The notes beneath the pieces were generated by a model that made no database searches, had not been told where the DNA came from, and was given only the letters and a program-made list of their open reading frames with translations. Source: Chlamydiota bacterium (GTDB taxonomy: Bacteria > Auribacterota > JACPWU01). Taken from it: 64,000 bases of DNA. The position numbers and the translations under genes are program-made. Positions 9,901 through 56,500 of the stretch are shown in pieces. Position 1 is the stretch's first letter. Each line of letters starts with the position of its first letter. The stretch is taken from positions 9 through 64,008 of the forward strand of contig JACOUC010000036.1 of the NCBI GenBank assembly GCA_016178055.1, read 5' to 3'.

Positions 9901-12900
9901 TTCTGCATCCCCGCGATGGCTTAAAAGGGCTTGATACTCACTCGATGTAACACGTGATTTTTCTTGTGCGTCTCTGGCCATGACCATCACCAAAGGAATC
10001 ACTTCCTTCGTTTGTTTTAAAGTTGTCAAAATAAAATAAATATTCTGATAAACCCCCTCTTGAAGGCGAATGACTTGAACAGGAAATTCAATATCATCTA
10101 AAGAAAGTTTACGCCCTCCCAATTCATCCTGAAGAGAATCGAGCAAAATATTTCCCTCTCCCGTTTCAAGATTCTTCATCAACAGAGCCTCAACCGCATT
10201 TCTTGATTGTGCCAATGTCAAATCATTGCGATCCCGAGGCACATCCCACTGATCTCCCTGCCGCCACTGACCCGCTCGATAGAGGTCATAATGGCAAATC
10301 CTACCCCCTTGAGCCATCGAGGCATTGTCCGGCATTTTCTCCATCGCTTGAGATAATCTTTGATAGATCTCAAGCGTCTGAGAGAAAGTGGAGGGCATTT
10401 TGGTTTTGAGTATATTCAGCTTTGATTGATAACGCTCAAGCAAAGTCCGATCCTGCAAAATCACAAAATTGACTGCTGTTAGAAATAAGAGTTGGTCTAC
10501 TTGACTCTGAATCGCCCCTTCAATAAGTTTTCCAAGTGTCCCGATCTCCTCGGAAAGCAAGGCCTGTCTCACTTCTTCTGTGATACGCTGATGCACATTT
10601 TCTCGTCGAACCACAAGAGGTTGAAGAGTAGAGGCTGCAGGCAAAGCAGTTTCACCAGACAAAATATGCGCCTCAATAAACCTCCTCAACGCCTTGCCCA
10701 GGGGATTTTTGCCTTCGCGATTGAAAATTTTATCTGTGAGCTGGATAATCTGAGGATGCGTAAGACGGGTTCTTTCCAAGGCCTCATGAAGGGTCGCTTC
10801 ATCCACCAGATCCGAAATGCCAGTGCTCTTTTCCTCCGCCTCAAGAAACTGCATCAGATTGACCGCCAAAGCGCTTTCAGAGCCCAAGAAATATTTTTCT
10901 CTGCTCAAGACCCGAGCCTCAAACCATTTGAAAGCCTCTCGAGGATTTTGAAGAGCCGCCAAGACCTTTACTATTTCATCGTTTTCAATTCCTTGCTGAA
11001 CCAATGTGCTCCAAATCTCACTTCCAAGGCGCCCAGCCAAAGCCCTCGAGCGTTCTTCCACAAGCGTTACAACAGGCTCATGGGAACTTCTCACCTTGTC
11101 ACTTTGCTCTTCAATTTCTCTTCGCCACTGGGCTTCTTCGTCAGGCGTAACCTCTGGGCCAATGATGTTGCCTGAAGATGGCTCTTCTTCACTTAAGGCG
11201 AGTGACGGAGATTGGGAAGTTTGAAGTTGCCACACAATTTTAGAAGATCCATCACCATTCGTCGTTAACACCTGACTCCCATCTTCAGAAAACTTAGCAG
11301 AGCGCACCCAATTTTTTCCTCCATAAAAAGTCTCAAGGAGCTCTCTTGTTTCAACATTCCATACTTGACCACTCCAATATCGAGTTCGCTCTAGGTAATA
11401 GTTATATTGATCACCCCCCCAGCTTGTTTCAGTTCTATCAAAACGCATTGTTAATACTGTACGTCCATCAGGGGAAACAAGAATATGAACAAGTTTTTTG
11501 CCCATGTATTCCCTATAACGCTTGATAATGCGTTCCTTTGCTTCTTCGGTTAATAGAGAATCAGGAGATCGAGGAGTCGTGGTACCTAAAGGAGCGTCTG
11601 ACGCTGTCGAAGTTACACTTCCTTTTTTCCCCCTCTTTCGAGAAGGACTTGACGGAGGTGTGACTGTTGCTCCAGCAGAGTCAGCTGTTATCGTTGTCGT
11701 GGTCGAATCAGCCCCTGAGCCCGTTTCATCTCGCACAGGTTCAGGGACTATGACTACTTTTGGAGCTTCCGTACATTCCATCCTCAACCAATATGTCACT
11801 TCATTCTCCCCTTCTGTAAAGCCCAACTGACACCCTGGAATAGATGCCATTTGTGCCTTGAGTTCGAGTAGTTTATTCCTGACATTGGATTCTCCTGATT
11901 CTCTGAGACGAAGGGCCTCCTGTCTTGCAGCTTCAATGTCTGGATATTCACCGGTGAGATGTGTTTTTAAGAATTTCTCTTCGTTGGCAGACATTCTTCC
12001 TTCTCTGACAATCTGAATATTAAAGTGGCCTTCTTTTAATTCACTTCCCAGTTCAATGAATCGGCCTGGGTTGTGGGTTTTGGCGATGCGGACAAATTCA
12101 TTGAGCCAGTCTTTTGCGATGGGTCTTTGTTCTTCTGGTAGAGGGAGAGCTTGTGTGAATGGGGTGATGGCTGCATCTTTTAGTTGGGGGTCGTTGTGGT
12201 TTGAACGCTGCCTTTGTTGAGGGGGTGCAGGTAAAGGGGTTCTGGCCCAGAAGCAGCCATATTGTCCATTCATCTGATCGGTTTTGGGAGCGGTTCTTTC
12301 AGAGTCGATGAGATTTGAAAGCACGGCTGGCTCCACCCCATCATTCTGAGAATCCACTGTTTGGCCGACGAGTCCCATGATCTTCTGAAAGATGGGAGCG
12401 ACAGCTTGAGAAGCTGATAATCGATTGTCTGAAGGGGGCGCAGGGTCGAAGGTGAATTGAAAGCCTCTTTCTGGGTTGATGTCTATGTGGAAGGTTCCGC
12501 CATTGAGAATGTGGCCTTGAGCCATTTCTTCGAGGATTCTGTTGCTTAAGGGGTCTCTGATCTCCTGTTCGATGAGTCGTCGTAAGGGCCGTGCCCCATT
12601 GATGATGTCATAGCCTCTTTGAGCGAGGGTTTCATAGACGTTATCCGCGACTTCGACTTTGAATTTGTTTTCTGTGAAGTCACTGAGTTCCCGTTTTAAG
12701 AGGATGCGAGCAATTTGTCTTATGTTTTCAGGGGTGATGACGTTGCAGGCGATGATGTGGTCGATGCGGTTGATGATTTCAGGTTTGTATTTGGCTCTGA
12801 TGCTGGTTTCTACGGTTTGGGCAATGAGGTCGTTCATTTGGGTAATAATAGCTTGTGTTGCCTCTTCTGTTTCTGCGGTTTTAAGTTCTTCAGCCAGGGT

Positions 12901-15900
12901 TCGTAATGGACCTTGTATTTTCTCCATGCCAATGTTGGAGGTCATGATGATGAGGGTGTTTTTGAAGTCGACGGTGTTCCCTTGGCCGTCGGTGAGTTTT
13001 CCTTCGTCGAAGACTTGCATGAGGGTGGTAAGGACGTCCGAATGGGCTTTTTCGATTTCATCAAAGAGGAGAACGGAATAAGGACGTTTGCGGACGGCTT
13101 CGGTGAGTTGGCCGCCTTCTTGGAATCCCACATAACCCGGTGGGGAGCCGATGAGTCTGGATTTTTGATGGGATTCTTGGTATTCACTCATATTGAAGAC
13201 CGTTAAGGCCTGGTCGCTGTCAAAGAGGAATTGAGCTAAGGCTTTAGCCAGTTCTGTTTTGCCTACGCCTGTGGGGCCGGCCATGAAGAAGACGCCCATG
13301 GGACGTTTGCGCTCACCGGGGATAGCCCGGGCACGACGAATGGCTTGAGCGACGGCTTTGATGGCGTCTTCTTGGCCTACGACTCTTTTATGGAGTTCTC
13401 CTTCGATGTTCAAATATTTGGCTGCGTCGTCTTGGTCTAAGGCACCGACGGCCATGCCGGTCATGTCGGCTAAATATTCCTGGACGTCGGCTTGGGTGAT
13501 GCGGATGTCTTTTCTTAAATTGGATAATCGGCTCAAAATAGTATGGTAAGCCTCGAGTATGCCGATCATTTGGTTATGGACTTCGATGACGGTGGGGTCG
13601 GTGTCTGGAACTCCTTCTTTTTTAAGGTCGATGTATTCGTTAATGACGCTGTGGAGACGGTTGAGGAAGTCTTCTTTAGTCATTTCTAGACTGTTCCTTC
13701 GGGCGTTGACTCGGCCCATGGTTCCTTCTAAGACGTCAATGGCTTTGCGGGGTTGGGATTTTTCAGAGAGATAGCGTTGGGCGCATTTGACAGCGGCTTT
13801 AATGGTAGCACGATCTATTTTGAGTGAGAATTTTCCTTCTAAGTAGGTTTTGGCGCCCGTAAGAATGGTTTCTGTTTCCTGGACACTGGGTTCAGGGACA
13901 GAAACTTTGGTAAACCTGTCTTCGAAGGGTTTGTCTTGTTCGATGTAGGCTTTGTATTCAGGGTCTGTCGTGGCCCCAATCACAGTGACTCGCCCTTTTT
14001 CCAGGATGGGCTTTAAGAGGTCTGCGATTCGGGTGTCAATGCTGTTGCTGGGCCCTTTCAATAGGAAATGGATTTCATCGATGAAGAGAATGACGTTGTT
14101 GTTGGTTTTTTCAAGGAGTGGGATCAGTGTTTTGAGGTTGTCTGACATCTCTGAGAGGGTGCTTCCTAAAGCACCCGCTTTAAGGGCAATGATTCTCCTA
14201 CCCTTTAAAGGGCCATCGAGGTTGTTTCGGGCAAGTTTCAAAGAGACGAGTTCGACGAGGGCTGTTTTACCGACTCCTCTGGGGCCGACAAGAACTAAGC
14301 TGTTTTTGATTCTTACTGGAGTGGCCAGACGAGCCATGATGCGGCCGATTTCTTCAGAGCGCCCCACCAATGGGCGAGCGCTGTCAGCTTCAAGAGCGAG
14401 GTCATAGGTATAGTCTTTTAATACCTGCCACTCTTTTTTCTTTTGACCATTGCCTAAATCGACATCTGCGTTCAGTCCTATTCTCTTCAAGTAATCATCC
14501 AGGGGCTCCATCGGAGACTCACCTACAGAGAGTCGAAGGAATGGGACACCGAGGAGATATCCTAAAAGACCTGCAACTACGGTAAACAATAAGGAAGCAA
14601 TCGAAGATCTCCCATTGATCATCGAAGCCCCCCATGGTACTATTTTGATAAAGGAGGCTTTAAAATGTCCGCGAAACTGCAAGAGCTGACGGAATTGATG
14701 GGAGAATTGGAGCCTAAAAGTCTTTCTCGACGAAGTAGAAATGTTGCCAAAGCGCTCTTGGGTAGCTGCCGCGGCCTCATCACGCCTCGAGGTAAGTCCT
14801 CTACCCGGTGGATCCGACAAGAACGTTCCTCCCTCCACAGCAAGGTGAGATAGTTCTGTGCCCTCATTACCAACACTCATTCTCGATACAGATGTCATTG
14901 TCAACTGGCTATCGGAAGAGCTTGAAACAGGAACAGGTCGAGAGTTATGGAAAGCCCCATTTGACATTATCTCTAAAGCAGAAGAAGGTCGCTCTAGTGT
15001 ACTCATTTGTCTTACAACTCTGTTAGAGCTTAGATTTCTCTTGAGGAGAAAGAAACGGCTGAGTGACGCTTCGATTCGGTCTATTATTAATCGAATGTTC
15101 CAAATTATTTCGGTCAATGTTCCTGACAAAACTGAATTGCTCAGGGCCAACCATCTCCAGAGCCTCCATCCTTTGGACCCGTTTGACGCAATACTGCTCG
15201 CTTGCGCCATGTCGTCTGAAGAAGCTATTCTTGTTTCTCGTGACAAGCCACTCCTTCGCATTGCATCTGAATTCCTTGAAGCACTTAACCCTGAAGATGC
15301 CCTCGCCAAAATTTCAAAGTCTTGAATAGCATCAATGCTAAGACGAAAAACCGGAGAGCCAAAAATCCATCCTAAGAGGCCTGTCCCTATGGCTAATAAC
15401 ACAGAACCAATTTTGAGGATGTGTTGAGCATGTGTATGCTCTCCTTTTCCATCGCCATGAGAATGGGTGTGAGCGGGTTTCATCACTATGCTTGAGGTAG
15501 GGCCTCCTTCATTTGAGGATTGAAGAAGTTCGAGGATTTTAAATTCATCGAGCCAATTCCCAATGGCTTCTACGACGCTTACTCCGTCAGGGAGCCTACA
15601 CTCTTCTATAAGTTTTCTTACAGTGGCTTCATCATCGGCCCCCATTTTTCCCATTTCACGCAGTTTTTCAATCAGCCTGGGCGTTAAGGCCTCACGAAAG
15701 CGCTCTTGAGTATAAGCACCGCTATTGATCATTTCATCCAGGGCCTCAGGGACGGCATGGGAAGCAGCATGTTCTGCGTCTTCTGAGTCTAAGTTGCTTT
15801 TGATGTCGGGATTCTTTTCGGCATCTTGAGCAAGTTGCCGCCCGATCCGGCCTAAGATCTGAGTCAATTTCTTCGCCGCTTCGTCTAGTTTTTTCTGAAT

Positions 15901-18900
15901 AAATTCTTCCTTCATGAGAATATTGGCTTGAATCTCTTTAAAAGGCTTACCGTAATGCTGTTCCAGCTCTTTTTGAAAAAGTTTAATAAAAAGGTCCCGC
16001 GTCTTAGGATCAGCCGTTTTTAATCGATCCGCCAGAAATTCACGTAAGGGTCTTTCCTCACACCAGCCCAGGGCACCAAAACCAAAGAATGCAGATATGG
16101 GAGACGTCATTGCGAGGAGCGAGAGCTCCGAAGCAATCCCAGCTTTGCGCAAAACAGAGATGGCTTCGTCGGCTTCACCTCCCTGCAATGACGGCCAAAC
16201 ATAGCTTCCATCCAAAGACGGAAGAGGCAAAAGATTCACCAACCCTAAAGCCAAATTAATTTTGACTCCCCAAATAAGCGGGCCCATTAAAAATCCAAAA
16301 GGCCCAACGGCATTAGCGGCAAGGGCCCCTACCGCAAAGACCACGGCCAAAATTAAATTACTCACCGGCCCCGCAAGCGCTACTTTCTTCATCGAAGATT
16401 CTGAGAGCCGCCAAGAAGAAATAGGAACGGGCTTTAACCACCCGATCGGAATCCCGATCAAAAGCGTAGACGCTAAAAAAGAAATCGTCCCCCAAAAATC
16501 TAAATGCCTCCAAAACCTGAGCAACGTCAATCGCCCCGCCTCCTCAGCCGTCCGATCCCCCAACCTCGCCGCCAGCCATCCATGGGCATATTCATGAAGA
16601 ATCGCGGAGAAGAGAATAATTGCTATCAATGGAACAGCACTTCCTAAAAGGCCAGGGTTGGCCACAAATACAGCGGCAAAAGGAATGCACAAAAAGACAT
16701 AAATATTCTTGACTTGCCCCGGACTTGATTCTATGATTTTTCTCATGAATGAGAAAAAGACTCCAAAACCTATTCCTACTCCAGAAGAAGCCCAGCGATA
16801 CAACTCCGTTATTATTGAGGAGATGAGAAGCCAATTTAAGGTTTTTGGCGAAGGATTAACCGGTTTTAGAAAAGAAACGAATGCACGATTTGACAGACTC
16901 GAAGAAGTCGTTATGGATACGCGTGAACGTGTCTCTAGGGTAGAGAATAGACTCACCAAAGTTGAAGAGAGCAACGCTCGCATTGAATCTGACATTCGCC
17001 TCATCAAAAACCAAATCAAAGTCAAGGTGGATTTAGAAGAATTTAAAGTACTTGAAAATCGGCTTGTGATCGTTGAAAAAAGACTGGCTGCCCTTCCCAT
17101 CTCCGCTTGATTAGCGCTATTTGAAACTCTTCTGGAACCCCCTATACTGCGTATCAAGCCATCCACATCCCCCACATATCCTCCTAATTCCAAGGCTCTT
17201 CTAAGGTAAATTTCTATTGAATGAGCCGTTTGTGCGTGACTCAGGAAAAATCGCATCTGATCTTGCGTGAGCGTAGTCACGCGTTCAAGCCAAAGAAGAG
17301 GGTTTTTCTGCAATTCATCGGAAACTTCCGAACGATTTTCCTTTCCCGCTTTCCTCTCTATTTCTCGAATAACCCCTTCTAAATCTCTCGCCACCTCCTC
17401 CCAATTTTCTAAATTAAGTTCTCGGGCCAAAACCTCTTGATCCCTTTGCCATTGATCAAATTGGAGAGCCGTAAGCCCCGCAGCAAAAGCAGCCTCTTCT
17501 CCCAACGAGCGTATTTCCTCAAGAAAATGAAGCCTCGCGATTTTCTGAAGGGTCGGAAGTGAGGCTTCTTTTAAAGCATCAGGAGCGCCCGAAATAAATC
17601 CAAATTGCTCTTTCATCTTCCTAAAATAGGCGCTGCGATCGTCATGACCCGTCATACGAGGGGCAATGACCCAATAACCGATCTTGGCCTCTTTCAATTT
17701 CTTCGTGATCCCCTCCGTATGAAACCCACCCACCACAAGCGCTGCACAGGGAAGTTTCTTTTCCTGAATTAATTTAAGAGATTTTTCGAACATGATTTTG
17801 TCTCGTTTTAGAACTTGAGTGTAGAATTTTTGGGAGAGGTTAAAGATTTCTCCAAAATCAGGAGATTCATAGTCTATTGCTTCCTTTTTAGCTAATTCGC
17901 CAAGTTGAATTAGAAAATCTCCGATAAAGTCGTTCGGGCCTGCTTGGCTCGAGGCTCGAGGATAATACTTTGCTCGAGGCTCGAAGCTCGAGGCTCGAAG
18001 TAAATGCTTCTCCAGTTTTTGCTTTTGCCTCGAGCCTCGAGCTTCGAGCCGTTTTATGTCTTCCCTACTTCCTTCCATCGCAATCACACGCCTGAGTAGG
18101 TCATAGTCTTTTTCTAACGCCAGCAGCTCTTTCGCCTGAGGCGTTGTCGCCAAATTTTCAACGAGTTCTCCTTCGAGGTTTTTAATTTCTTCATCCAACT
18201 TCTCCCAAGAGATTTGTTTTAGGAGAGACATTTGTTGAATAAGGAGTTGAAGATTGGGATATGGAGCTGATTTCTCGACAGGCTCGAAACGTTTATTAAT
18301 TCTGTTATTGGAGTGCTTCTCGACTGCGCCTCTCGCTCCACTATCGTTTCTCGACGCGTTTCGACTAATGTCGAAACTTGCTTGAAAACTAAATTTATTG
18401 TTCGAGCGTAGTCGAGAACCTTCCTTCGCGTCCTCTACCTCCTCCTGGCCCCTCCTTGTGGTTTGCGCCGTGTTAGGCTCCAACCACTTCCTCGTCCACC
18501 CGCTACGGCGGGTACCCGGACTTGGTCGCAAGGAAGGGAGATTATTTCCCTCTAGCTTCGAGCCTCGAGCCTCGAGCATTCCTAAGTACTTGCTTAGGAA
18601 CAAATAATGCTCTTCATCACTGGTTCTGCCCAGCCGATGCTCTAAGATATTTCTCAAAACTTCATTGAGTTCTTCTTTTGGAAGCTTCTTCTCTAGTTCA
18701 GATAAAAATAAGAGGTATTCAGACTCAATTTTTGATGCGTCCGTTTTCTTTTCGAGTGCTTGGAGTCGAAGGTAGAAATCAAGCTGGGGGTAGTTTTGGC
18801 TCGAAGCTCGAGGCTCAAGGCTCGAGGAGGAAAGAGGAAGAGATTTATTTTCTACATTTTCAGTTTTTCCTTTTGTCTTTGCTTTTGCCTCGAGCTTCGA

Positions 18901-19887
18901 GCCTCGAGCCTTCAGCCCGTTTTCCGCTTCTAGCTGCTTTACATATTCCCCCATCTCTATCTTATGCTCCCTATACTTCTCCCTTTCTTCAATGAGCTCT
19001 ATCAATTCCTTTGGATAAATTTTTTCGGACAAACCCCTAAATATATCATCTAAACCCTGCCAGACATGCTCTTGTAAATTCCTCTCCTTCAAAAGCTCCC
19101 CCATCGCCCTTAAATTCTCGACATAATCAGACAGTTCTTCCACCCCCACTCCCTTAACCTTTTTTGGCCCTTCCTTAACGAGAAAAGTCTCCACCCCATC
19201 GAGTTCATTTTTATCCAAGAATTTTTTGAGAAGAGAAGCTAAAACCCTCTGATCTGGGAAAGACCAGAAAAAGGACATGTCCATTTCACCATCAGCAGCC
19301 TCACAAAATATATGAAATGGTTTAAAATTCTCAGATACGGCTCTAACTTTGAGATTGTTTTGGCTCGAAGCTCGCCCGCCTCGCCTGACTCGTTCGTCAG
19401 ACGAGTCGCCGCCTTTGGCGAGCCTCGCCCTTTGGCGGGAGGTGGGAGGCTCAAGGCTCGAGGTAAATACTTCTGCTTTCTTTGCTTTTGCCTCGAGCTT
19501 CCAGCTTCGAGCCTCGAGCCCGTTTTTTTCTTCGAGCTTCGAGCCTCGAGCCTCTAGCTGCTTTTGTAAAATTTTCAACATCCTCTGAATATTCTCTTGC
19601 GCCTGAGAATTACAATGAATATCTTCAATAATGAAGAGATGAGGTGCTCCGGGGACATAGAATTGATCGGTCACTTCCCCTATTTCATGGGGAATACGCA
19701 TCTCCTCCAAAACTGAACTTAAATCGAGGGATTTGCGATCCACAGGATTAAACTCATTTACAGAAGTGACTGCTTTCAAATGAGTTGCGAATTGAGTATT
19801 CTGGCCAACAGAATAAGAAATGTCATAAAAGAGGAAGGAAAAACAAACGCACAAACTAATCAATGAACGCATAAACCTGACAAGCAT
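3931..19887 (-). CDS. Giant composite ORF1. Order: signal/TM, ChaN/TraB-like N-domain, M50 protease, Clp-type 2xAAA+, beta-propeller-like segment, large unknown region, GT4 glycosyltransferase, SAM-methyltransferase-like block, unknown C-terminus. It may be four fused cistrons.
   Basis: No stop from 19998 to 3931 (5355 codons). Likely start is ATG 19887 (MLVRFMRSLISLCVCFSF, signal-like), preceded by GAGAGGGG. The blocks are separated by stretches that are antisense to real plus-strand genes. In the ORF1 frame these stretches translate as S/T/L/R-rich low-complexity sequence. Confidence 0.55.
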   Translation of the reverse strand: MLVRFMRSLISLCVCFSFLFYDISYSVGQNTQFATHLKAVTSVNEFNPVDRKSLDLSSVLEEMRIPHEIGEVTDQFYVPGAPHLFIIEDIHCNSQAQENIQRMLKILQKQLEARGSKLEEKNGLEARSWKLEAKAKKAEVFTSSLEPPTSRQRARLAKGGDSSDERVRRGGRASSQNNLKVRAVSENFKPFHIFCEAADGEMDMSFFWSFPDQRVLASLLKKFLDKNELDGVETFLVKEGPKKVKGVGVEELSDYVENLRAMGELLKERNLQEHVWQGLDDIFRGLSEKIYPKELIELIEEREKYREHKIEMGEYVKQLEAENGLKARGSKLEAKAKTKGKTENVENKSLPLSSSSLEPRASSQNYPQLDFYLRLQALEKKTDASKIESEYLLFLSELEKKLPKEELNEVLRNILEHRLGRTSDEEHYLFLSKYLGMLEARGSKLEGNNLPSLRPSPGTRRSGWTRKWLEPNTAQTTRRGQEEVEDAKEGSRLRSNNKFSFQASFDISRNASRNDSGARGAVEKHSNNRINKRFEPVEKSAPYPNLQLLIQQMSLLKQISWEKLDEEIKNLEGELVENLATTPQAKELLALEKDYDLLRRVIAMEGSREDIKRLEARGSRQKQKLEKHLLRASSFEPRAKYYPRASSQAGPNDFIGDFLIQLGELAKKEAIDYESPDFGEIFNLSQKFYTQVLKRDKIMFEKSLKLIQEKKLPCAALVVGGFHTEGITKKLKEAKIGYWVIAPRMTGHDDRSAYFRKMKEQFGFISGAPDALKEASLPTLQKIARLHFLEEIRSLGEEAAFAAGLTALQFDQWQRDQEVLARELNLENWEEVARDLEGVIREIERKAGKENRSEVSDELQKNPLLWLERVTTLTQDQMRFFLSHAQTAHSIEIYLRRALELGGYVGDVDGLIRSIGGSRRVSNSANQAEMGRAASLFSTITSRFSSTLNSSKSTLTLIWFLMRRMSDSMRALLSSTLVSLFSTLETRSRVSITTSSSLSNRAFVSFLKPVNPSPKTLNWLLISSIITELYRWASSGVGIGFGVFFSFMRKIIESSPGQVKNIYVFLCIPFAAVFVANPGLLGSAVPLIAIILFSAILHEYAHGWLAARLGDRTAEEAGRLTLLRFWRHLDFWGTISFLASTLLIGIPIGWLKPVPISSWRLSESSMKKVALAGPVSNLILAVVFAVGALAANAVGPFGFLMGPLIWGVKINLALGLVNLLPLPSLDGSYVWPSLQGGEADEAISVLRKAGIASELSLLAMTSPISAFFGFGALGWCEERPLREFLADRLKTADPKTRDLFIKLFQKELEQHYGKPFKEIQANILMKEEFIQKKLDEAAKKLTQILGRIGRQLAQDAEKNPDIKSNLDSEDAEHAASHAVPEALDEMINSGAYTQERFREALTPRLIEKLREMGKMGADDEATVRKLIEECRLPDGVSVVEAIGNWLDEFKILELLQSSNEGGPTSSIVMKPAHTHSHGDGKGEHTHAQHILKIGSVLLAIGTGLLGWIFGSPVFRLSIDAIQDFEILARASSGLSASRNSDAMRRSGLSRETRIASSDDMAQASSIASNGSKGWRLWRWLALSNSVLSGTLTEIIWNIRLIIDRIEASLSRFFLLKRNLSSNRVVRQMSTLERPSSALEIMSNGAFHNSRPVPVSSSSDSQLTMTSVSRMSVGNEGTELSHLAVEGGTFLSDPPGRGLTSRRDEAAAATQERFGNISTSSRKTFRLQFSHQFRQLLQFRGHFKASFIKIVPWGASMINGRSSIASLLFTVVAGLLGYLLGVPFLRLSVGESPMEPLDDYLKRIGLNADVDLGNGQKKKEWQVLKDYTYDLALEADSARPLVGRSEEIGRIMARLATPVRIKNSLVLVGPRGVGKTALVELVSLKLARNNLDGPLKGRRIIALKAGALGSTLSEMSDNLKTLIPLLEKTNNNVILFIDEIHFLLKGPSNSIDTRIADLLKPILEKGRVTVIGATTDPEYKAYIEQDKPFEDRFTKVSVPEPSVQETETILTGAKTYLEGKFSLKIDRATIKAAVKCAQRYLSEKSQPRKAIDVLEGTMGRVNARRNSLEMTKEDFLNRLHSVINEYIDLKKEGVPDTDPTVIEVHNQMIGILEAYHTILSRLSNLRKDIRITQADVQEYLADMTGMAVGALDQDDAAKYLNIEGELHKRVVGQEDAIKAVAQAIRRARAIPGERKRPMGVFFMAGPTGVGKTELAKALAQFLFDSDQALTVFNMSEYQESHQKSRLIGSPPGYVGFQEGGQLTEAVRKRPYSVLLFDEIEKAHSDVLTTLMQVFDEGKLTDGQGNTVDFKNTLIIMTSNIGMEKIQGPLRTLAEELKTAETEEATQAIITQMNDLIAQTVETSIRAKYKPEIINRIDHIIACNVITPENIRQIARILLKRELSDFTENKFKVEVADNVYETLAQRGYDIINGARPLRRLIEQEIRDPLSNRILEEMAQGHILNGGTFHIDINPERGFQFTFDPAPPSDNRLSASQAVAPIFQKIMGLVGQTVDSQNDGVEPAVLSNLIDSERTAPKTDQMNGQYGCFWARTPLPAPPQQRQRSNHNDPQLKDAAITPFTQALPLPEEQRPIAKDWLNEFVRIAKTHNPGRFIELGSELKEGHFNIQIVREGRMSANEEKFLKTHLTGEYPDIEAARQEALRLRESGESNVRNKLLELKAQMASIPGCQLGFTEGENEVTYWLRMECTEAPKVVIVPEPVRDETGSGADSTTTTITADSAGATVTPPSSPSRKRGKKGSVTSTASDAPLGTTTPRSPDSLLTEEAKERIIKRYREYMGKKLVHILVSPDGRTVLTMRFDRTETSWGGDQYNYYLERTRYWSGQVWNVETRELLETFYGGKNWVRSAKFSEDGSQVLTTNGDGSSKIVWQLQTSQSPSLALSEEEPSSGNIIGPEVTPDEEAQWRREIEEQSDKVRSSHEPVVTLVEERSRALAGRLGSEIWSTLVQQGIENDEIVKVLAALQNPREAFKWFEARVLSREKYFLGSESALAVNLMQFLEAEEKSTGISDLVDEATLHEALERTRLTHPQIIQLTDKIFNREGKNPLGKALRRFIEAHILSGETALPAASTLQPLVVRRENVHQRITEEVRQALLSEEIGTLGKLIEGAIQSQVDQLLFLTAVNFVILQDRTLLERYQSKLNILKTKMPSTFSQTLEIYQRLSQAMEKMPDNASMAQGGRICHYDLYRAGQWRQGDQWDVPRDRNDLTLAQSRNAVEALLMKNLETGEGNILLDSLQDELGGRKLSLDDIEFPVQVIRLQEGVYQNIYFILTTLKQTKEVIPLVMVMARDAQEKSRVTSSEYQALLSHRGDAELVEVLRDGEVETQEGKVSAYTSRFINGRDEIQYISPHHAWANRIPPGYLLVNTSLPGKWGAFVEPGDMINTLAAMGRFLVRYYNPEAQTLIDGFRINAGDVGVDVRDLTAAQGRASVISGREMKFSLITWRGTKRGIDPSHFLDYYFNLHWLGSLREGEKGYRHESLGQGHDAILRTGVMQGFLLEMMKKHGNKEGLELAKVWLNHYINEIQARKLSEKPLFKVQELKAFISRYVDPALGSFSSGKGVLLPSYWLASQVTRPLDWFWVNVLGRKSLSRDFKEDFVVPFIEEIFIWALSLGSPVLYAVLRVVFVWGHERRLEAKNELEARSSREKQRTEEVFTSSFEPRASSGFSSSFRRIFIPTLISLVSLLGFFRTGLSSWEMILVVGITFYLVWNLYGARYLARAANFDSRRATRSSRILYSSKSTFTLTRFLMILRSASIRTLLSEIFSTLISPFSSRVSIFPSLISILSTLVSTFSSRVSILSTLVSIRALPSSTPRTRTRKLASSFSIRSNFLSILAKPSSVFSRSPDNPSPKTLNWPRRSSRMTATWLDFITESFSDLFSSMAGIVGQMLRQVKGKSQRAAIFLVVGMGLLILTSLIQPDIALAGLLPDIQPTSVVSNLFSNILRLWPVLAMGLIAHIVSNHWVTVTGALYQKGVLGDDANDDQGSQTSPEGSITVTQGEASTTENLSQLKEAFSGKVLVFYAPGYLEMNGVSTYMDHLLLLLAQEIKGLKIHVIVLGGGQRVSPLLKRDGGKVVVSSELEGVVQIHMTRQNNEPGQDLADEVNGLLRKILQEEGKVDLIVSESSFHYAGNAFNAFGKQNKIPVIQEFHSGPWRLLDRVPEDLVGDSRFFSPNTVNILKKADLALTVSESVQKRFQKDFGVEVECLYPVADLSFYDPRYVTTTKTDDLRVNHSLSGKTVILMSGRPVERKGYDVVLDAILGLSNDLKRNAAVVIAGFTEDMLRDGDDDYNRQFRESLYEKIQHLREEGVLIVLLGPLSAEEMRDWYFLSDIVAMPSRRDEPLKNEETFGLVSLEAQSMGKPVIVSRSGGLPETVVDGETGCIVESGNVEAFRGKIEELIRHPNLRVTMGQRARQVAGKRFSREANLERHLKLFLGVMRRTNILTEIKRIYTEINHQTIEEKNILEGIAAIFGLDFANDDERHREAGKILSIVAALPETRRKEVLENIVRFLKFMTWHASGEHRFMPLALAVVNMFEGRDIFSREPIVRFIQINPQFRYLLDMYHLYANPFGVEAEWIPTHLPSLHLSIPHKDHYRWLDIGSAPKAYGAPTLNLLRKTFEEALPGTHFSYEGTDAFFPSYSLESGEIRESAFNSADFRERGQTDVEGVTYLDARIPQNDVMSESFMQNRSAESFDFISLSMTLHHLKKPDEGVERRFLAKGVDWVDESGNAIQPFYLLTQTQQEVVERLLKRLSHQGVCFLNLPRGEIYFENQNEDLYLVIQRVGENQYCLYQEAIPFQPEYEVYSSVEFLITGLSFPGYNTSGIRSLYPDETNAFFTEINKWLYRADLLVCHYQGRDAFPWASVRAAVRAINERKGLVEIFSAYLHLVPEDEPLKSRILEGVVQFHKQNLIQNFESWAQENITAGLSLREWMESHTVYDILWTLGDATHSFAKETSLSENDLKTLDAVLVELMIQVKHPDLIREAEAHQAKTERLSLELEARRLLDEEGLGQTVQNIEQELEGKVERGEFQQSSITLDFSGDVTWSIRQDMNGASFEMEIGEMTAQLNSQTLGVTHVQMSRPRDLSLALAYLIGLKTKLRHFQKKFLAALKPSADQKPVCLFPDMDLPVQSLGGLSPTEFIKESETGNRKMVFVERKRSREEFDTLCREHQIPQDRVLFLTDLNEQDARSAIDTKVRELFRGKEAEKWLLGHRENRNLYEPIQGLFDKFMYGQEMVSVMAAICYGDAEAITRALLQHGFKPDELEGLLVDVDEHQVTPFANVSRWHDQMEKFREATEMTERSM
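5560..6070 (-). other. ORF1 block: class I SAM-methyltransferase-like region
   Basis: WLDIGSAPKAYGAPT (motif I-like) and FDFISLSMTLHHL (motif III/post-II-like). Weak call made by eye. Confidence 0.35.
6530..7800 (-). other. ORF1 block: GT4-type (GT-B) glycosyltransferase domain
   Basis: VLVFYAPGYLEMNGVSTYMDHL at the N-terminal end of the block. GRPVERKGYD and the EX7E-type ETFGLVSLEAQSMGKPVIVSRSGGLPETV motif lie toward its C-terminal end. Confidence 0.75.
8162..8190 (+). promoter_or_regulatory. Sigma70-type promoter giving a leaderless transcript of the nested coiled-coil gene (copy 1)
   Basis: TTGACT (8162..8167), 17-nt spacer, TACGAT (8185..8190), 7 nt, then ATG at 8198. The geometry is identical to 16709..16737. 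Confidence 0.6.
8198..8695 (+). CDS. Coiled-coil protein of unknown function (copy 1), nested antisense in ORF1
   Basis: MEENKSEN... with six near-perfect heptads (IETKVDK IETRLEK VETKVDK IEIRLGK IETRLEK GEIKVEK). It is a paralog of 16745..17110, sharing QFKVFGEGL and the conserved tail N.RIE.D.R.IKN..KVKVDLEE.K.LE.R. The TTG at 8162 used by the ORF track is the -35 box. Confidence 0.7.
   Translation: MEENKSENDSVMKSSHVAVILEDLRGQFKVFGEGLSGLREKTEEGFARIDKKFDRIENELANFRVRVRGVEDGNARIETKVDKIETRLEKVETKVDKIEIRLGKIETRLEKGEIKVEKISESNVRIEADLRIIKNLVKVKVDLEEYKILEDRVALLESKFAALAR
8848..8945. repeat. In-frame palindromic (GCTCGAG)n hairpin element
   Basis: Left arm 8848..8876, loop TAAATACTTCTTCGGTTCTTTGCTTTTC, right arm 8905..8928. 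In ORF1 it translates as LEAKNELEARSSREKQRTEEVFTSSFEPRASS. Confidence 0.85.
12480..14420 (-). other. ORF1 block: Clp/Hsp100-type double AAA+ ATPase
   Basis: Walker A motifs GPRGVGKT (~14264..14290) and GPTGVGKT (~13255..13280). Also ILFIDEIH, VVGQEDAI, LLFDEIEKAH and GARPLRRLIE motifs. A single TM helix precedes the block (MINGRSSIASLLFTVVAGLLGYLLG). Confidence 0.85.
14615..14643 (+). promoter_or_regulatory. Sigma70-type promoter of the nested PIN module
   Basis: TTGATC (14615..14620), 17-nt spacer, TACTAT (14638..14643). It is followed by the SD AAGGAGG (14651..14657) and ATG 14665. Confidence 0.5.
14665..14853 (+). CDS. Small protein upstream of the PIN gene, putative cognate antitoxin
   Basis: Perfect SD AAGGAGG 7 nt before the ATG. 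The ORF ends 4 nt before the PIN start. No recognisable antitoxin fold by eye. Confidence 0.45.
   Translation: MSAKLQELTELMGELEPKSLSRRSRNVAKALLGSCRGLITPRGKSSTRWIRQERSSLHSKVR
14858..15325 (+). CDS. PIN-domain (VapC-like) ribonuclease, nested antisense in ORF1
   Basis: LILDTDVIVNWL at the N-terminus, LLEL, DPFDAILLACA and SRD acidic-residue motifs of PIN domains. GTG start, with AAGGTGAG upstream. Confidence 0.8.
   Translation: MPSLPTLILDTDVIVNWLSEELETGTGRELWKAPFDIISKAEEGRSSVLICLTTLLELRFLLRRKKRLSDASIRSIINRMFQIISVNVPDKTELLRANHLQSLHPLDPFDAILLACAMSSEEAILVSRDKPLLRIASEFLEALNPEDALAKISKS
16150..16746 (-). other. ORF1 block: M50 (site-2 protease) family metalloprotease
   Basis: HEYAHGW at 16582..16596 (HExxH within a TM helix) and the NLLPLPSLDG motif. 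The block begins at an in-frame Met at 16746 (MRKIIESSPGQVKNIYVFLCIPF). Confidence 0.8.
16709..16737 (+). promoter_or_regulatory. Sigma70-type promoter giving a leaderless transcript of the nested coiled-coil gene (copy 2)
   Basis: TTGACT (16709..16714), 17-nt spacer, TATGAT (16732..16737), 7 nt, then ATG at 16745. Confidence 0.6.
16745..17110 (+). CDS. Coiled-coil protein of unknown function (copy 2), nested antisense in ORF1
   Basis: MNEKKTPKPIP...IIEEMRSQFKVFGEGLTGFRKE...KVKVDLEEFKVLENRL. Paralog of 8198..8695. Confidence 0.7.
   Translation: MNEKKTPKPIPTPEEAQRYNSVIIEEMRSQFKVFGEGLTGFRKETNARFDRLEEVVMDTRERVSRVENRLTKVEESNARIESDIRLIKNQIKVKVDLEEFKVLENRLVIVEKRLAALPISA
17946..18050. repeat. In-frame palindromic (GCTCGAG)n hairpin element
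   Basis: Arms 17972..18000 and 18028..18050, loop TAAATGCTTCTCCAGTTTTTGCTTTTG. Translated as LEARGSRQKQKLEKHLLRASSFEPRA. Confidence 0.85.
18290..18577. repeat. Composite GC-richer insertion ending in a (CCTCGAG)n arm
   Basis: Contains the 20-mer GTTCGAGCGTAGTCGAGAAC (18400..18419), an internal IR CCTTCCTTCGCG/CGCAAGGAAGG, and the arm 18550..18577. ORF2 and ORF3 have no counterpart in their N-domains. Confidence 0.6.
18798..18917. repeat. In-frame palindromic (GCTCGAG)n hairpin element, long-loop variant
   Basis: Arms 18798..18827 and 18888..18917, with a ~60-nt loop similar to that of 54885..55004. Confidence 0.85.
19362..19556. repeat. In-frame (GCTCGAG)n element with a nested GC-rich hairpin insertion
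   Basis: GGCTCGAAGCTCG ... [GACTCGT-TCGTCAG-ACGAGTC hairpin] ... GGCTCAAGGCTCGAGG TAAATACTTCTGCTTTCTTTGCTTTTG CCTCGAGCTTCCAGCTTCGAGCCTCGAGCC. Confidence 0.8.
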
Positions 19888-20069
19888 GACAACCCCTCTC
19901 GATCTTGAAAAAATCAATAATGACTGCAAGCTTACATAAGTAAAGACACTTTGGGGACTAGAAATGTAAAAATAAAAATTTAGAAATTTCCATCTCACAA
20001 TTGATAAAGGAAGGTTTCTTATAGAATAACCAGCTATTCCTTCAAGCCCTTACATAATGATTTCCTCTA

Positions 20070-20232
20070 CTTTATGGAACTGTTGCAAAATGTAAGCTTT
20101 ACCGTTCGAGCGCAGTCGAGAACAAATGTTTTGAGCTCGAACTTCTCGATTCGGCTCGAAATCTTCGACTTCTCGAGACTCGGCTCGAAGAATAACGGGT
20201 GATGCACATTTTGCAACAGAGCCTTTATGAAC
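20070..20232. mobile_element. MITE-like element in the intergenic region upstream of ORF1
   Basis: 13-bp perfect terminal IR, TGTTGCAAAATGT (20081..20093) and ACATTTTGCAACA (20206..20218). Flanking direct repeats CTTTATGGAAC and CTTTATGAAC. The interior is rich in TCGAG/CTCGAA motifs and carries the 20-mer GTTCGAGCGCAGTCGAGAAC (20104..20123). Confidence 0.55.
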
Positions 20233-24209: not shown

Positions 24210-24214
24210 AGCCT

Positions 24215-24245
24215 ATTTCGAATCTCGGATTTCGAATTTCGAATT
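24215..24245. repeat. Left heptamer-repeat arm of the four-helix-bundle cassette
   Basis: ATTTCGA ATCTCGG ATTTCGA ATTTCGA ATT. Its reverse complement shares an 18-19 nt perfect core with 24617..24649. Confidence 0.8.
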
Positions 24246-24255
24246 GAAAAACAAA

Positions 24256-26113: not shown

Positions 26114-26119
26114 CAAGAA

Positions 26120-26178
26120 GATCTATAAACGCGGATCTAACGCAGATCTATAAACGCAGATCAAATGCGGATCTATTT
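26120..26178. repeat. Left repeat arm of the GxxExxY cassette
   Basis: Tandem GATCTATAAACGCG / GATCTAACGCA / GATCTATAAACGCA / GATCAAATGCG units, complementary to the right-arm units GATCCGCGTTT. Confidence 0.75.
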
Positions 26179-29345: not shown

Positions 29346-29403
29346 CCAGAGTCAGGGTGGCTGAACTGCCAAAGGCTGTGAACTTAGAGTTCCTTTGTGC
29401 ACA

Positions 29404-53500: not shown

Positions 53501-56500
53501 GAACTTCCAACCCGTAATTCTTGATCACCAACCTGAATGACGCTCTCACCAGAAACCACAATGAATTGACCCTTTGCTGAATCATATGTAATAGTAATAG
53601 GCGCCTCTGAATAACCTGCGAGTTTGACCTGTAAAATTTTTCCAGATAAGAGATCAGGTGAAATGCGGTAGAATTCTCCTTTCTTCCAAACTCCTTCTTC
53701 CAGCGATATAGATTGTGAAAATCTGATTAAGGCTTCTTCCTTCCATTGATCTATTTTTTGGGCCAGCTCACCAAGGACATCCGCATATTTAACAGGCAAA
53801 CCTTGCTGGACATATTCTTTAATCTTTGATTTATATTCACGAGCACTTTTGAGATTGTCTAAATAAGCCCAATCGCCTCGTTGAGTTGCACTGAAAATTT
53901 CATAACGAATTCTTTCTCCTTGAGAAGCTCTATATTCTGCAACCACCCCAACTCGATGCGCATGAAGTTGAACTTTAGAATCCTTAGATTGTTTGGCCAA
54001 ATTTTCTTTTGTCTCATGGAGAGCGACACCTCTGATCATTTTCATGATATCAAAATCAAGGGCTCTCGCTTCTTTCAAAGACTCTAGGCTCATCACCGTA
54101 TAAAGTTTTCCATCCACTTCAAAACTGAGGGTCGAACTCTTGCCGCGCGAGCCTTCAAAGAAAACAGAAGTCGAATCTGTCCCCGAACGCAAAGCCCCCG
54201 GTAAATCTTTTAGAGAGGTAATAAAAATATTATTCTCTTTAAGCCAATCAGATTCATCTTTTTTCAAACCTAGTCCAGGGGAACTTCCATTCACCAAACC
54301 AATCTGTAAACGTTGAAGAACCATTACAAAATCTATCGAACTCAATGAAGTTAAATCCCCTAATGCCAATTCCTGATGCTCGCCCACCGGCTGAGCGGTG
54401 GAAAGAGGAATTATTTCCGCTACCGGAGGGCCACTGGCTTCGAGAGCAGCTATATTAACTTCTACCTCAGACAGCTGTAACCCCATAACCTGACTGGTTT
54501 TTCCATCGATTAAAAAAGTAGCGAGATTAATTATTAAATTTTTTCCGGGCAAACCTTCAAGAGGAATCGCACATAAAAGCTCGCTTCCTTGTAAAATGAA
54601 TTTTAAATTTTGAAGATCTAGAGAGAAATCTCGAAGAATAGCCCCTGGCGACGACCGATCTTGTTCGAGCGCAGTCGAGAACCCGCTCTTTCCCATAGCC
54701 TGAAGCCTTGCCCCAACAAAATCACCAAAAGATTGTGGACTGACAGCCGCATCAGTTGCTTTAAATTCAGCATAAAGACTTTTTAAAATGGTCGAAATCA
54801 ACTGAAGTTCATAGGCAATAATCGGAGCTCGGTCTTCGGGAAGGCCTTCAGCATTGGTCATGAGCCAATGCATGAGACTCTTCTGGCTCGAGGCTCGAGG
54901 CTGGAGGCTAGAGGAGGAAATAGGAAGAGATTCATTTTCTGCTTCTTCGGTTTGTTTTTTTTCTTTTGTTTCTGCCTCGAGCTTCGAGCCTCGAGCTTCG
55001 AGCCTAAGATTTTCCCCCACCCATTTCTCAAAAGGGGTCAGCTCCCCCATCATTACAGATTCATAGCGGTCCGCAGAAGATGCATTAAAATGAGGGATGA
55101 AGACAACATACGAGTAGCCCGCCTGTTTCAAGGCTTCCTTTAGAGCTGGAGTATGGAACCCCCCGGTCATCACGGCCCCGAAAGACTCATCAGACTCTTT
55201 CAAGCGATTTAACGCCCGAAGCGTCATTTCATGATCCCGTTCAAGCGTTGCTTCATAATAAGGTTCGATCTGGCTAAGCCGATCGGCCAAGGGATAATGG
55301 ATATCTTCAGCATGCTCTTCTACAGTGTAAGCCCCCGATTCATGCTGAATGAATTTTAAAATTTTTGGAATGAGCTTATCTTTTTTAGAAACGTATTCCT
55401 GATATTCAGATTTCTCAATGGAGAGATCTGTAAGGCGATCCAGAAGATTAATAAAGGATGAATAGAGGCATAAAGATTTTTCTTCCTCGGTCACACATTC
55501 AGCAAATAAGGTTTCAAAGGCAAGTTTTTGGATTTGTTCAAAGAGGAGGGCATCACTGACTTTTTGCACCGCTTCGAGATAGTTCATGTAGTTTTGGATA
55601 TTTGGATAAGAATTTGAAATGCTCGAGGCTCGAGGCTCGAGGATCGAAGCAGGCATAGAAAGCTCCATAAACCTCTTCACTGTCTGATAAAATTCTAAGG
55701 GGGCAATCTCATTCAAACGATACGATAAAGTCTGCTCTAAAAATTTGGCCATTTCCTCATCACTGGCCTTTCCGTTGACGGCGATGAGAAGCTTTCCCAT
55801 TTCATTGTGAATTTTCTTTAGATCAATATTTTTCTTGAAGGGAAGCGTTGCAAGATAAGGCTTAATCTCTGAAAAATTTTCAAGATTGATTTTTGCCTTT
55901 TCGCTCTCCCTCATGAGACTTCCCATAAAATGCTCTAAATCTATTTTGTAGGTAAGATAGTCATTCAATTCCCTTACAAAACTCTGAACTTCACCTGTAT
56001 AGACATAATCCGAAAACTGAGCCATTAAAATTTTTAATTTAGCAATATGCTCTTTCAATTCTTTGCGAAGAGAGACCGTATCCCGGTAGGCATGATAATT
56101 TTTTAAGTAGAGATGGATATCCTCAATCCCATAAAGTTGAAGAGGCTTTTCTCCATTGATCGCTTCAAACTCAGCACCCGTGAGCTGACCCAAATTGAGA
56201 TATTCCTCGGACACCTCTTTTAATATTTTTTTATCGGGGAAAGATCGAAAGCGTTGGGTCGAGAGCTCACCCGAGGCGGCTTCGATGTTGATCCTTTTAA
56301 GATTATATTTTTGAGCGAGATATTCTAAGAGGTCCACCGTATTTTTCTGAGCTTGAGGATGGGCATGAATATCCTGAAAGAGGAAAACGGTATGGCTTGA
56401 GTTCGGCGCTTGATACGTCTCGATCACCCGTCCCAGCTCTGTCGGAATAAAAATAGAGGAAGAATTTTCAAGAGAAGAAATGGACGCCGCTTCTTTAGCC

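Follow-up and report, generated by a model that had tools for sequence, protein, structure and literature searches.

A genome with REP/REPIN elements carries tens to hundreds of copies, and in REP/REPIN-RAYT systems the gene of the cognate Y1 transposase (RAYT) is flanked by the repeats. REPs also occur within ORFs, and their clusters can encode 43-82 aa (PMC3733652); the RAYTs of Bacteroidetes, subclass 2.6, have atypical flanking structures (PMC6006769). The palindromic elements of Rickettsia (RPEs) are in-frame repeats inside ORFs, sited where the protein fold tolerates an insertion, and bacterial MITEs can create in-frame fusions (PMC10969869). Here we analyse a block of the giant gene ORF1 that shares traits with each of these systems and that is probably a non-native pile-up of small hairpin-forming REP/MITE-like elements, gathered in one surface loop of the N-terminal domain.

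ORF1 forms a continuous open frame within the 64-kb window (the whole stretch of DNA that was analysed), and its first ~790 codons consist of a conserved ~500-aa domain and four repeat-derived blocks that break it up. This domain matched neither a Pfam family nor, at a significant level, any fold in the PDB (best E 0.46); an erythromycin-esterase/ChaN-like fold was unsupported, EreC appearing only at E=8. The initial annotation had proposed an in-frame insertion at 18290-18577. The segment was confirmed and is stop-free, but comparison with the orthologue at the protein and DNA levels showed that this extent is too small: the true block spans 18262-18582 and therefore takes in a further degenerate repeat unit at 18271-18291 (Table 1). 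Its translation (GMLEARGSKLE...KRFEPVEKSAP) stands between HYLFLSKYL and YPNLQLLIQQMSL, both conserved, and the ORF1 frame is unchanged where conservation sets in again. Over the block this frame contains 0 stops, as expected from the filler translation first described, against 1-10 in the five remaining frames. Colinearity with the orthologous locus L002, at 82% on either side, was lost only over 18262-18598, stopping at 18599 and restarting at 18261. The higher GC content reported for the segment was also found, with 0.60 in 100-nt windows over 18400-18549 compared to ~0.42 for the whole window. In the AlphaFold model the block has a pLDDT of ~30, with model residues 446-538 below 50, and is flanked by helices H424-445 and H544-558, while the core of the domain exceeds 90. 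The block is thus predicted to occupy a permissive surface loop between two confident helices, where it would be translated as a disordered R/S/G/E-rich linker without disturbing the fold.

Table 1. Coordinates of the ORF1 block, its components and related repeats in the window.
Feature	Position	Strand	Basis
ORF1, host gene, 5355 codons	3931..19998	-	
Whole lineage-specific block, 107 codons, 321 bases	18262..18582	-	protein alignment, DNA colinearity, pLDDT
TTTCTCGACAGGCTCGAAACG, translated FEPVEK	18271..18291	+	fuzzy match, inspection
Degenerate R-form unit TCTCGACTGCGCCTCTC	18318..18334	+	fuzzy match
Degenerate R-form TCGA unit TCTCGACGCGTTTCGA	18349..18364	+	fuzzy match to TCTCGACTGCGCTCGA, 3 edits
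Perfect 8-bp hairpin GTTTCGAC-TAAT-GTCGAAAC, AT-rich spacer	18358..18377	.	read from sequence
20-mer GTTCGAGCGTAGTCGAGAAC, L-form hairpin unit; TATT directly upstream, also in L032 and L118	18400..18419	+	
GC-rich piece, ~60% GC, imperfect inverted repeat CCTTCCTTCGCG / CGCAAGGAAGG	18419..18537	.	
72-nt structured core, two parts	18458..18529	-	homologous contigs, covariation
C-type arm (CCTCGAG)4, CCTCTAGCTTCGAGCCTCGAGCCTCGAGC, translated LEARGSKLE	18549..18577	.	
Intergenic doublet, 20-mer (19/20) and inverted partner TTCTCGATTCGGCTCGAA, in MITE-like element 20070-20232	20104..20160	+	
Solo 20-mer unit, 19/20, within ORF2 coding sequence (..GFSTALEQ..)	54663..54682	+	
Solo G-type heptamer arm in ORF2, homologous loop (ASILEPRASS)	55621..55649	.	

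Four TCGA-type hairpin units, the 20-mer included, lie in the block. Fuzzy matching found 11 such units in the 64 kb, 4 of them in 18272-18419, compared to a mean of 2 in whole-window shuffles. Read in reverse complement, the first 13 nt of TCTCGACTGCGCCTCTC are identical to the 20-mer core at 20110-20122 and 54669-54681. For TTTCTCGACAGGCTCGAAACG there are two readings, a degenerate hairpin unit and an eroded G-type arm whose pairing partner would be the C-arm at 18549-18577. The 20-mer itself has three copies in the window, against none in 100 shuffles, a number well outside chance expectation even though two of them carry a mismatch. It had been said to recur at 20104 and 54663, and copies are indeed present at both places, but they are not identical to it: the exact sequence stands only at 18400 and the other two match at 19/20 positions, with T replaced by C at position 10. 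A T-loop/tRNA origin of the GTTCGAG motif was rejected because there is neither a flanking stem nor an ARAGORN hit.

A scan of genome contigs placed the 20-mer in at least 120 genome stretches from several phyla, usually as inverted doublets. Among the matches listed, exact copies came from Bacteroidota, Alpha- and Gammaproteobacteria, Latescibacterota, Omnitrophota and one CPR genome, and the repeats were mostly found just downstream of genes. The 5' flank was GTC[ACT] in 111 of the 128 copies listed (GTCA in 68, GTCC in 23, GTCT in 20, against TATT in 3); with the TATT flank included, 26-28 nt are shared with L118 and L032. Again among the matches listed, an inverted partner, whose outer bases covary, lay at most 120 nt downstream in 59 of 128 copies, with a median gap of 21 nt, and upstream in 11. 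These short imperfect palindromes, set in inverted doublets with a short spacer close behind genes, recall REP/REPIN (BIME) elements; doublets are formed by the 59 copies just mentioned and by the intergenic pair 20105-20122 / 20143-20160, whereas the block has the reverse order, R...L instead of the canonical L...R. However, the 20-mer lacks the GTAG/CGTC end tag of REPs, its flanks being GTC[ACT], TATT or CGTTCG according to lineage, and it is exact across several phyla while REP families are usually lineage-specific. Furthermore, no transposase or RAYT gene was found within the 64-kb window. In other genomes a second hairpin comes after the 20-mer and bears variable, often GC-rich cargo in its loop (L032, L091, L044, L048), so that the 20-mer and the GC-rich piece of the block may have arrived as one composite element.

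The arms of the GC-rich piece, CCTTCCTTCGCG at 18419-18430 and CGCAAGGAAGG at 18527-18537, are 11-12 nt long and complementary except for one extra base. As first noted, they bound the piece as an inverted repeat, and they pair in the folds of both strands (+ strand, -51.9 kcal/mol, z -3.58; - strand, -49.7 kcal/mol, z -1.98); the CCCGC-TACG-GCGGG hairpin was located at about 18499-18513. The intergenic element carries a perfect 14-nt terminal inverted repeat (20080-20093 / 20206-20219), with CTTTATGGAAC and CTTTATGAAC on either side as a possible direct repeat. Small size, the absence of coding capacity, terminal inverted repeats and strong hairpins are traits of MITEs such as Nezha, ERIC and Correia/NEMIS, and the 14-nt perfect and 11-12-nt imperfect repeats of these two elements agree with them. 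Unlike MITEs, the ORF1 block shows no clear target-site duplication, neither around 18262-18582 nor around the GC piece, and its architecture is modular, with hairpin units and variable loop cargo in place of one fixed element. We know of no parent insertion sequence for these elements.

The 72-nt core within the GC-rich piece is oriented sense in the ORF1 mRNA. Its first part is a GUCC/GGAC stem with a GGGU bulge and the hairpin ACCCGC-CGUA-GCGGGU, and its second part the hairpin GGUU-GGA-GCC...GGC-GCA-AACC. It is unique within the window and single-copy in the examined sequence of the source lineage, a point against the reading of the block as a pile-up of repeats. It aligns with metagenome contigs (L149, L199, L172 and L182), with compensatory changes; identity is 92% over 50 nt with L199 and 83% over 71 nt with L149. 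Outside the 24-mer motif used for searching, 19 of 20 adjoining core bases match L149, and the structure is common to both. Further members that were absent from model building were found as well (L157, L145, L141, L131, L179 and L138), and the pair cells of 14 members comprised 267 Watson-Crick, 8 GU, 3 AC and 4 other combinations. The proposed module comprises the GUCC/GGAC stem, the GGGU bulge, a first hairpin of the form ACCCGC-NNNN-GCGGGU and a second one whose internal loop is 3x3 and G/A-rich. In Rfam scans of the window up to E=10 the core was free of overlapping hits; the 14 homologous loci gave none that reached the gathering score, and L149, L199 and L172 gave only a chance GRIK4 match up to E=5; known RNA families were rejected for the segment, as these scans of window, region and loci, together with ARAGORN, returned nothing overlapping it. 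Hits to miRNA families in the window reflect only the long hairpins that the heptamer elements form, and scored far under the thresholds. Neither hairpin of the GC piece had a hit in viral contigs. At other loci the module stands 40-80 nt downstream of tRNA genes or immediately precedes a toxin-antitoxin operon, but the family has no consistent gene neighbours, the contexts being heterogeneous and the ORF calls noisy in GC-rich contigs. It is conceivable, if rather doubtful, that the core is a copy of an undescribed, widespread structured module with a function of its own (e.g. RNA/ssDNA recognition or processing), carried as loop cargo by the cross-phylum TCGA hairpin repeats.

The third component is a heptamer palindrome family with the layout (CTCGAGG)n-loop-(CCTCGAG)n, which is stop-free in six frames by construction. 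Its 18 arms in the 64-kb window all lie inside the giant genes ORF1-3. The (CCTCGAG)n arm with which the segment was said to end is present at 18549-18577, and C-type arms like it occur at 8905, 18028, 18888, 19491, 19530, 54975 and 63040.

The content of the loop differs widely among relatives. All four extra blocks of ORF1 are missing from 17 stand-alone homologues, which have a 5-aa loop where ORF1 has 107 aa, and the block is a gap in all 21 other aligned sequences. The paralogues ORF2 and ORF3 had been reported to lack any counterpart; this holds for ORF3, with 8 residues at the loop, but ORF2 is not empty and has about 18-24 residues there, including a solo (CTCGAGG)3 arm. In the orthologues P0001 and P0002 ("Chlamydiae bacterium" MAGs) the loop carries an unrelated palindromic element of CCCCTC..GAGGGG type, and contig L124 terminates within that element. 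Two partial proteins, P0005 and P0006, break off at '..RRYLE', the loop position, as would be expected if their contigs ended there. The translated insert matched none of 5.8 billion proteins. The segment is thus conserved in no stand-alone homologue, paralogue or orthologue examined, in agreement with its reading as an insertion, and one loop is colonised repeatedly and independently, by a different repeat in each paralogue or orthologue.

Palindromic repeats (~100-150 nt in RPEs) that lie in frame in unrelated ORFs that stay open, at a predicted permissive loop and absent from homologues at the same position as RPEs are from orthologues, make RPEs a close parallel. The repeats of ORF1 are also multicopy within 64 kb, with 18 heptamer arms, 3 20-mers and 11 TCGA-type units. 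The motifs (CTCGAGG arrays, TCGA hairpins), in contrast, appear unrelated by eye and do not suggest homology; the host is a PVC-type bacterium and not Rickettsia, several families are stacked at one site, and one of them, a tandem array of 7-nt units, has no stop in any of the six frames. By analogy, the block may work like Rickettsia palindromic elements while not being a member of the RPE family.

The block is absent from homologues, its components are repeats, occupancy of the site varies in relatives, and disorder is predicted; the mobility, arrival order and neutrality of its elements are inferred. Three families, the heptamer palindromes, the TCGA mini-hairpins and the GC-rich two-hairpin module, would have piled into the loop, the mini-hairpins normally forming inverted doublets and the GC-rich module being carried between a closing stem. 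Only insertions that keep the frame and add no stop would survive in ORF1, and the gene would remain open because selection removes frame-shifting or stop-adding insertions or later changes. Since the window holds no transposase and no target-site duplication is evident around the block, transposition of these elements is putative. The proposal that several small elements were inserted one into another is right in that each of the three components is a repeat, and successive nesting of them is conceivable.

We also considered that the block is used and not merely tolerated, either as a structure in the mRNA (a pause, processing or binding site) or as an R/S/G-rich linker with a role in the protein. 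The compensatory changes that keep the module structure over unrelated contigs point in this direction, as do the 8 GU against 3 AC pairs in the ORF1 mRNA orientation and the occupation of the loop in every member of the clade. In addition, an older heptamer insertion in the same domain (18798-18917) is kept in a distant orthologue of ~54% protein identity, which is easier to reconcile with some use than with neutrality. However, the loop contents are entirely different among relatives, 5 residues suffice in the stand-alone homologues, and DNA hairpins recognised by a transposase would covary likewise. Moreover, 8 against 3 is weak strand evidence, and the better fold is that of the plus strand (z -3.58, against -1.98 for the mRNA strand). 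Use of the block therefore appears unlikely.

An assembly artefact, in which a join through common repeats captured a foreign fragment, possibly from another organism, is very improbable. L124 ends within a repeat at the exact site, P0005 and P0006 stop there too, a Logan contig with the upstream gene breaks off in the adjacent MITE-like element, the composition of the GC-rich core is foreign and no second assembly was found in support of the join. However, a chimera would have to exit and re-enter the gene, hold the frame and avoid any stop over 107 codons, and both junctions lie within repeat types native to the window. That the block grew on the spot from a low-complexity linker, through slippage, duplication and drift and with no elements from elsewhere, deserves equally little credence: slippage can extend heptamer arrays, several of which already stand in the flanking domain, and neither a target-site duplication nor a transposase was seen in the 64-kb window, but a unit identical to the 20-mer or matching it at 19/20 positions stands in at least 120 stretches of unrelated genomes, with 26-28 nt matching L118/L032, 19 of 20 bases beside the searched motif match L149 with a common structure, and a structured module of 60% GC in a gene of 42% GC is no product of local slippage.

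Literature searches on the heptamer, 20-mer and GC-module motifs returned nothing relevant. The probable pile-up of REP/MITE-like elements in ORF1 brings together three repeat families without description in the literature searched: a heptamer array, a cross-phylum 20-mer hairpin, whose identity over several phyla is unusual among REP-like repeats, and a covarying GC-rich module absent from Rfam. Metagenome assemblies break exactly at these sites because of such repeats, which also make proteins seem more novel than they are, and annotators of giant genes can expect to meet them. The phenomenon of selfish repeats within genes, best known from Rickettsia, is extended to a PVC-type lineage with giant genes, and the repeated colonisation of one loop provides a natural map of insertion tolerance in a large protein.

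The GC-rich insertion of ORF1 lies in an N-terminal domain common to the three giant ORFs (27-29% identity), which a search with the ORF2 domain also recovered in 17 stand-alone proteins of ~500 residues. In an alignment of 22 sequences, ORF1 displays four extra blocks that are absent from all stand-alone homologues. The block studied here is the third, with 107 residues (18582-18262) inserted between the conserved ..HYLFLSKYL and YPNLQLLIQQMSL.., a position occupied in the stand-alone proteins by a loop of 5 residues. The initial annotation saw no counterpart in ORF2 and ORF3; ORF3 has 8 residues at the site, and ORF2 is not empty there, its ~18-24 residues including ASILEPRASS, which a solo heptamer arm encodes (55621-55649). 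In the orthologues P0001 (54% identity) and P0002, 40-45 different residues stand at this position, encoded by another palindromic repeat, TCCCCTCTTAAGTTAAGAGGGG..GGGGGAGTTATG..TCCCCTTATATTAAGGGGAGGG. The contig encoding a third relative (L124, protein P0004) breaks off within this same repeat type, exactly at the site, and the partial proteins P0005 and P0006 terminate there at '..RRYLE', as expected for contig breaks at a multi-copy repeat, although the contig of P0005 was not retrieved. At the DNA level, ORF1 and its orthologue on L002 are colinear with 82% identity as far as 18599, and colinearity resumes at 18261; between these positions no similarity was found except to heptamer arms elsewhere. 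The segment is kept in no homologue and its translation gave 0 matches in a collection of 5.8 billion protein sequences, hence no conservation at the protein level was found in orthologues from other genomes. The domain itself has invariant D-x-H and GG(F/Y)HT motifs and showed neither a Pfam family nor a significant PDB fold match. Its stand-alone homologues are P0007-P0023, and a fusion to a Ser/Thr kinase occurs once (P0024).

Location of the giant genes, their shared domain and the elements discussed in the text
Feature	Position	Strand	Remark
ORF1 giant gene	3931-19998	-	5355 aa
ORF2 giant gene	35563-56601	-	7012 aa
ORF3 giant gene	56702-63754	-	2350 aa
Shared N-terminal domain	17620-19887, 54982-56601, 61700-63754	- (all)	
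c-di-GMP-I riboswitch	29248-29373	+	56.9 bits, gathering score 35
Degenerate TCGA-type unit (TCTCGACTCTCTCTCGA)	56655-56671		100-nt spacer, ORF2 to ORF3
Core-like element, L182	3030-3203		
Core-like element, L141	1289-1486		
Core-like element, L138	1482-1712		
Core-like element, L145	738-916		
Core-like element, L157	2782-2956		

The features initially listed for the block are all present in the window sequence, at or near the positions assigned to them. It ends on the right in a (CCTCGAG)4 arm (18549-18577), one of 18 heptamer arms of the window, (CTCGAGG)n or complement, which all fall within ORF1-3. Usually a G-arm and a C-arm form a pair around a loop of 13-60 nt; the translation is LEARGSKLEAKAK...SSLEPRASS. 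With 7 and 3 coprime, each frame of a heptamer array reads the same seven codons, for either strand, and the sequence directly shows that no stop is among them. The 18549-18577 arm is without an intact partner; its G-arm may survive in eroded form as TTTCTCGACAGGCTCGAAACG (18271-18291). The insertion at 18798-18917 is a complete heptamer palindrome (GLKARGSKLEAKAK...SSSSLEPRASS), orthologous in ORF1, P0001 and P0005, with a counterpart at ~10861-10964 of L002 inside the colinear DNA alignment. Its orthology in L002 and P0005 indicates that some in-frame repeat insertions are old and were retained. A second GC-rich insert (19350-19450, up to 65% GC) splits the G-arm of another ORF1 heptamer element and parallels the block; CCCGCC..GGCGGG forms its outer inverted repeat, GACTCGT..ACGAGTC its inner hairpin, and it translates as ..PPTSRQRARLAKGGDSSDERVRRGGRASS... 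ORF1 also contains a separate in-frame repeat that is not related to the heptamer family, a 21-nt unit (AAGATCGAAACCCGACTAGAG-like) in 4 tandem copies at 8444-8553 (plus-strand coordinates).

The 20-mer hairpin unit, initially described in three copies, is exact at 18400-18419 (plus strand) and off by one base at 20104 and 54663; against these three matches, none was obtained in 100 shuffles. In a fuzzy search, the TCGA-type unit TCTCGACTGCGCTCGA matched the window 11 times (shuffle mean, 2), with four of the matches clustered in the block (18272, 18318, 18349 and 18402). With one genome per species scanned, the 20-mer was found in at least 120 genome stretches. Among the matches listed, hosts are mostly Flavobacteriaceae and other Bacteroidota, together with Sphingobium, other Alpha- and Gammaproteobacteria, Latescibacterota, an Omnitrophota single-cell genome and a Gottesmanbacteria (CPR) MAG. 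The canonical element reads TGTCA-GTTCGAGCGCAGTCGAGAAC-spacer-xxTCTCGACTGCGCTCGAxx-TGACA: in the matches listed, GTC[ACT] precedes 111 of 128 copies, and an inverted partner lies downstream in 59 of 128 (median gap 21 nt) and upstream in 11. Covariation is seen in the outer bases of this partner (CATC..TG, GGTC..CC, CCTC..GG, CTTC..AG). The window copy is a TATT-flanked variant, sharing 26 nt exactly with a Gottesmanbacteria stretch (L118) and 27/28 nt with a gammaproteobacterial one (L032). Several genomes (L032, L091, L044, L048, L116, L078) have extra, often GC-rich sequence in the loop of the second hairpin, and the window has, at this second-hairpin position, the stem that closes the GC piece (18419-18537), with ATTATTT after it. 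The 20-mer and the GC piece may thus form a single composite element instead of two insertions, one nested in the other. The MITE-like intergenic element 20070-20232 contains a 20-mer doublet, and its terminal inverted repeat (CTGTTGCAAAATGT) is perfect over 14 nt; the direct repeats CTTTATGGAAC / CTTTATGAAC that flank it may be a target-site duplication, and an independent Logan contig (L206) terminates inside it. The GTAG/CGTC tag that defines the two REP superfamilies is missing from the 20-mer family, and no cognate RAYT was found in the 64-kb window. "Atypical secondary structures" were reported for Bacteroidetes RAYTs of subclass 2.6 (PMC6006769), and such structures may have some relation to the 20-mer family.

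A local GC profile confirmed the GC-richer segment (up to 0.60 at 18400-18549), and the inverted repeat bounding the GC piece is present in imperfect form (CCTTCCTTCGCG / CGCAAGGAAGG), closing the piece in the folds of both strands (plus, -51.9 kcal/mol, z -3.58; minus, -49.7 kcal/mol, z -1.98). Neither the rest of the window nor the loci of the relatives gave a second copy of the piece, and no Rfam family matched it or its homologous metagenome loci. Scanning metagenomes with CCACCCGCNNNNGCGGGTACCCGG yielded 81 stretches, against a rough chance expectation of ~2 for 20 specified bases. Most share only the hairpin with the 72-nt core (18458-18529), whereas L149, L199, L172, L182 (=L205) and L141 are far more alike (92% over 50 nt, 83% over 71 nt), L149 being identical at 19 of 20 further bases adjoining the searched motif. 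In ORF1-mRNA orientation, the consensus reads GACC-RAGY-CC-GGGU-ACCCGC-N4-GCGGGU-GG-RY-GA-GGAAGU and then enters a second hairpin, which contains a 3x3 G/A-rich internal loop and whose 4-bp outer stem covaries fully (GGUU/AACC, GCCG/CGGC, GCCC/GGGC); the stem adjoining the GGGU bulge covaries as well (GUCC/GGAC, GCCC/GGGC, AUCC/GGAU). A covariance model built on five sequences recovered members outside model building: L157 (two copies, inverted), L145 (two copies), L141, L131, L179, L138 and L202. Over 14 members, 21 pairs comprised 267 Watson-Crick, 8 G-U, 3 A-C and 4 other cells. The members were aligned by fitting to the model, and their loci had been chosen through the 24-mer, so that the core hairpin is circular as evidence and the flanking helices are not. 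Core-like elements lie 40-80 nt 3' of co-directional tRNA genes in L182, L141 and L138, occur as two nearby copies in L145 and L157, and are found immediately 5' of an RHH-MazF pair (L199), in an intergenic region (L172) and adjoining a queA remnant (L149). The strand preference of the core (8 G-U versus 3 A-C) is weak, and a transposase-recognised DNA hairpin would give the same covariation; we consider it unlikely that the block is a functional RNA or linker. In one metagenome (Ga0136611; L127, L153, L162, L186 and others), ~20 contigs have the 24-nt hairpin in a high-copy repeat of reiterated GGGTRCCC motifs, often with CTGATGAG, which we take to be a hammerhead-like word, a few bases 3' of it.

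AlphaFold2, given the 22-sequence alignment, predicted a confident domain core (314 residues at pLDDT >=90, pTM 0.59) and four low-confidence stretches, which coincide with the four repeat-derived blocks. The studied block (model residues 446-538) lies between helices 424-445 and 544-558 and was modelled with pLDDT ~30 and no secondary structure. It is stop-free filler, as initially read, with 0 stops in the ORF1 frame and 1-10 in the five others. The best-supported reading is that a single permissive loop took up small palindromic repeats repeatedly and was filled differently, by family or by copy, in every paralogue and orthologue. At least three kinds of repeat are stacked in the ORF1 loop. 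Selection for an open frame would filter insertions, a filter that heptamer arrays would pass automatically as far as stops are concerned, and other repeats by chance or later adjustment, and the outcome in the protein would be a disordered linker. No transposase was found in the 64-kb window, no target-site duplication is visible at the block, and its TCGA units stand out of canonical doublet order, so that mobilisation is only a putative route. In-place slippage is an improbable origin for the block. The relatives' assemblies and a Logan contig do break at such repeats, but an assembly chimera is just as improbable, since exit from and re-entry into the same gene, in frame and free of stops over 107 codons, would be very unlikely. 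We regard the initial observation as real and its interpretation as essentially right.

The window has ~42% GC, and housekeeping genes lie between the giant ORFs (glycogen debranching enzyme, TldD/PmbA, a split transketolase and menaquinone-futalosine genes). Small accessory genes are wedged among them (24209-24611, 26110-26655, 34769-35498 and 2820-3343): a gene of the 23S_rRNA_IVP type and a PDDEXK_3 nuclease, both located between the genes for the debranching enzyme and TldD/PmbA, as well as a HepT/MNT toxin-antitoxin pair and one resembling MazE/ParE. The nearest ORF1 relatives are encoded in NCBI MAGs labelled "Chlamydiae bacterium". The riboswitch lies directly 5' of an ORF (29397-30494) with a weak match to DUF1559 (prepilin-type), a PVC-typical family, and this gene also points to the PVC group.

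Rickettsia palindromic elements are palindromic repeats found in frame within ORFs (PMC10969869), and intragenic REP clusters encode 43-82 aa (PMC3733652). Both match the block functionally, but the block is not a member of the Rickettsia family, its motifs being unrelated by eye. The heptamer, 20-mer and GC-core motifs were not found in the searchable literature. In-gene palindromic repeats are thus known as a phenomenon, of which the block is a variant; the notable aspects of the finding are its structured GC module, which is undescribed, and the occurrence of the exact 20-mer across phyla.
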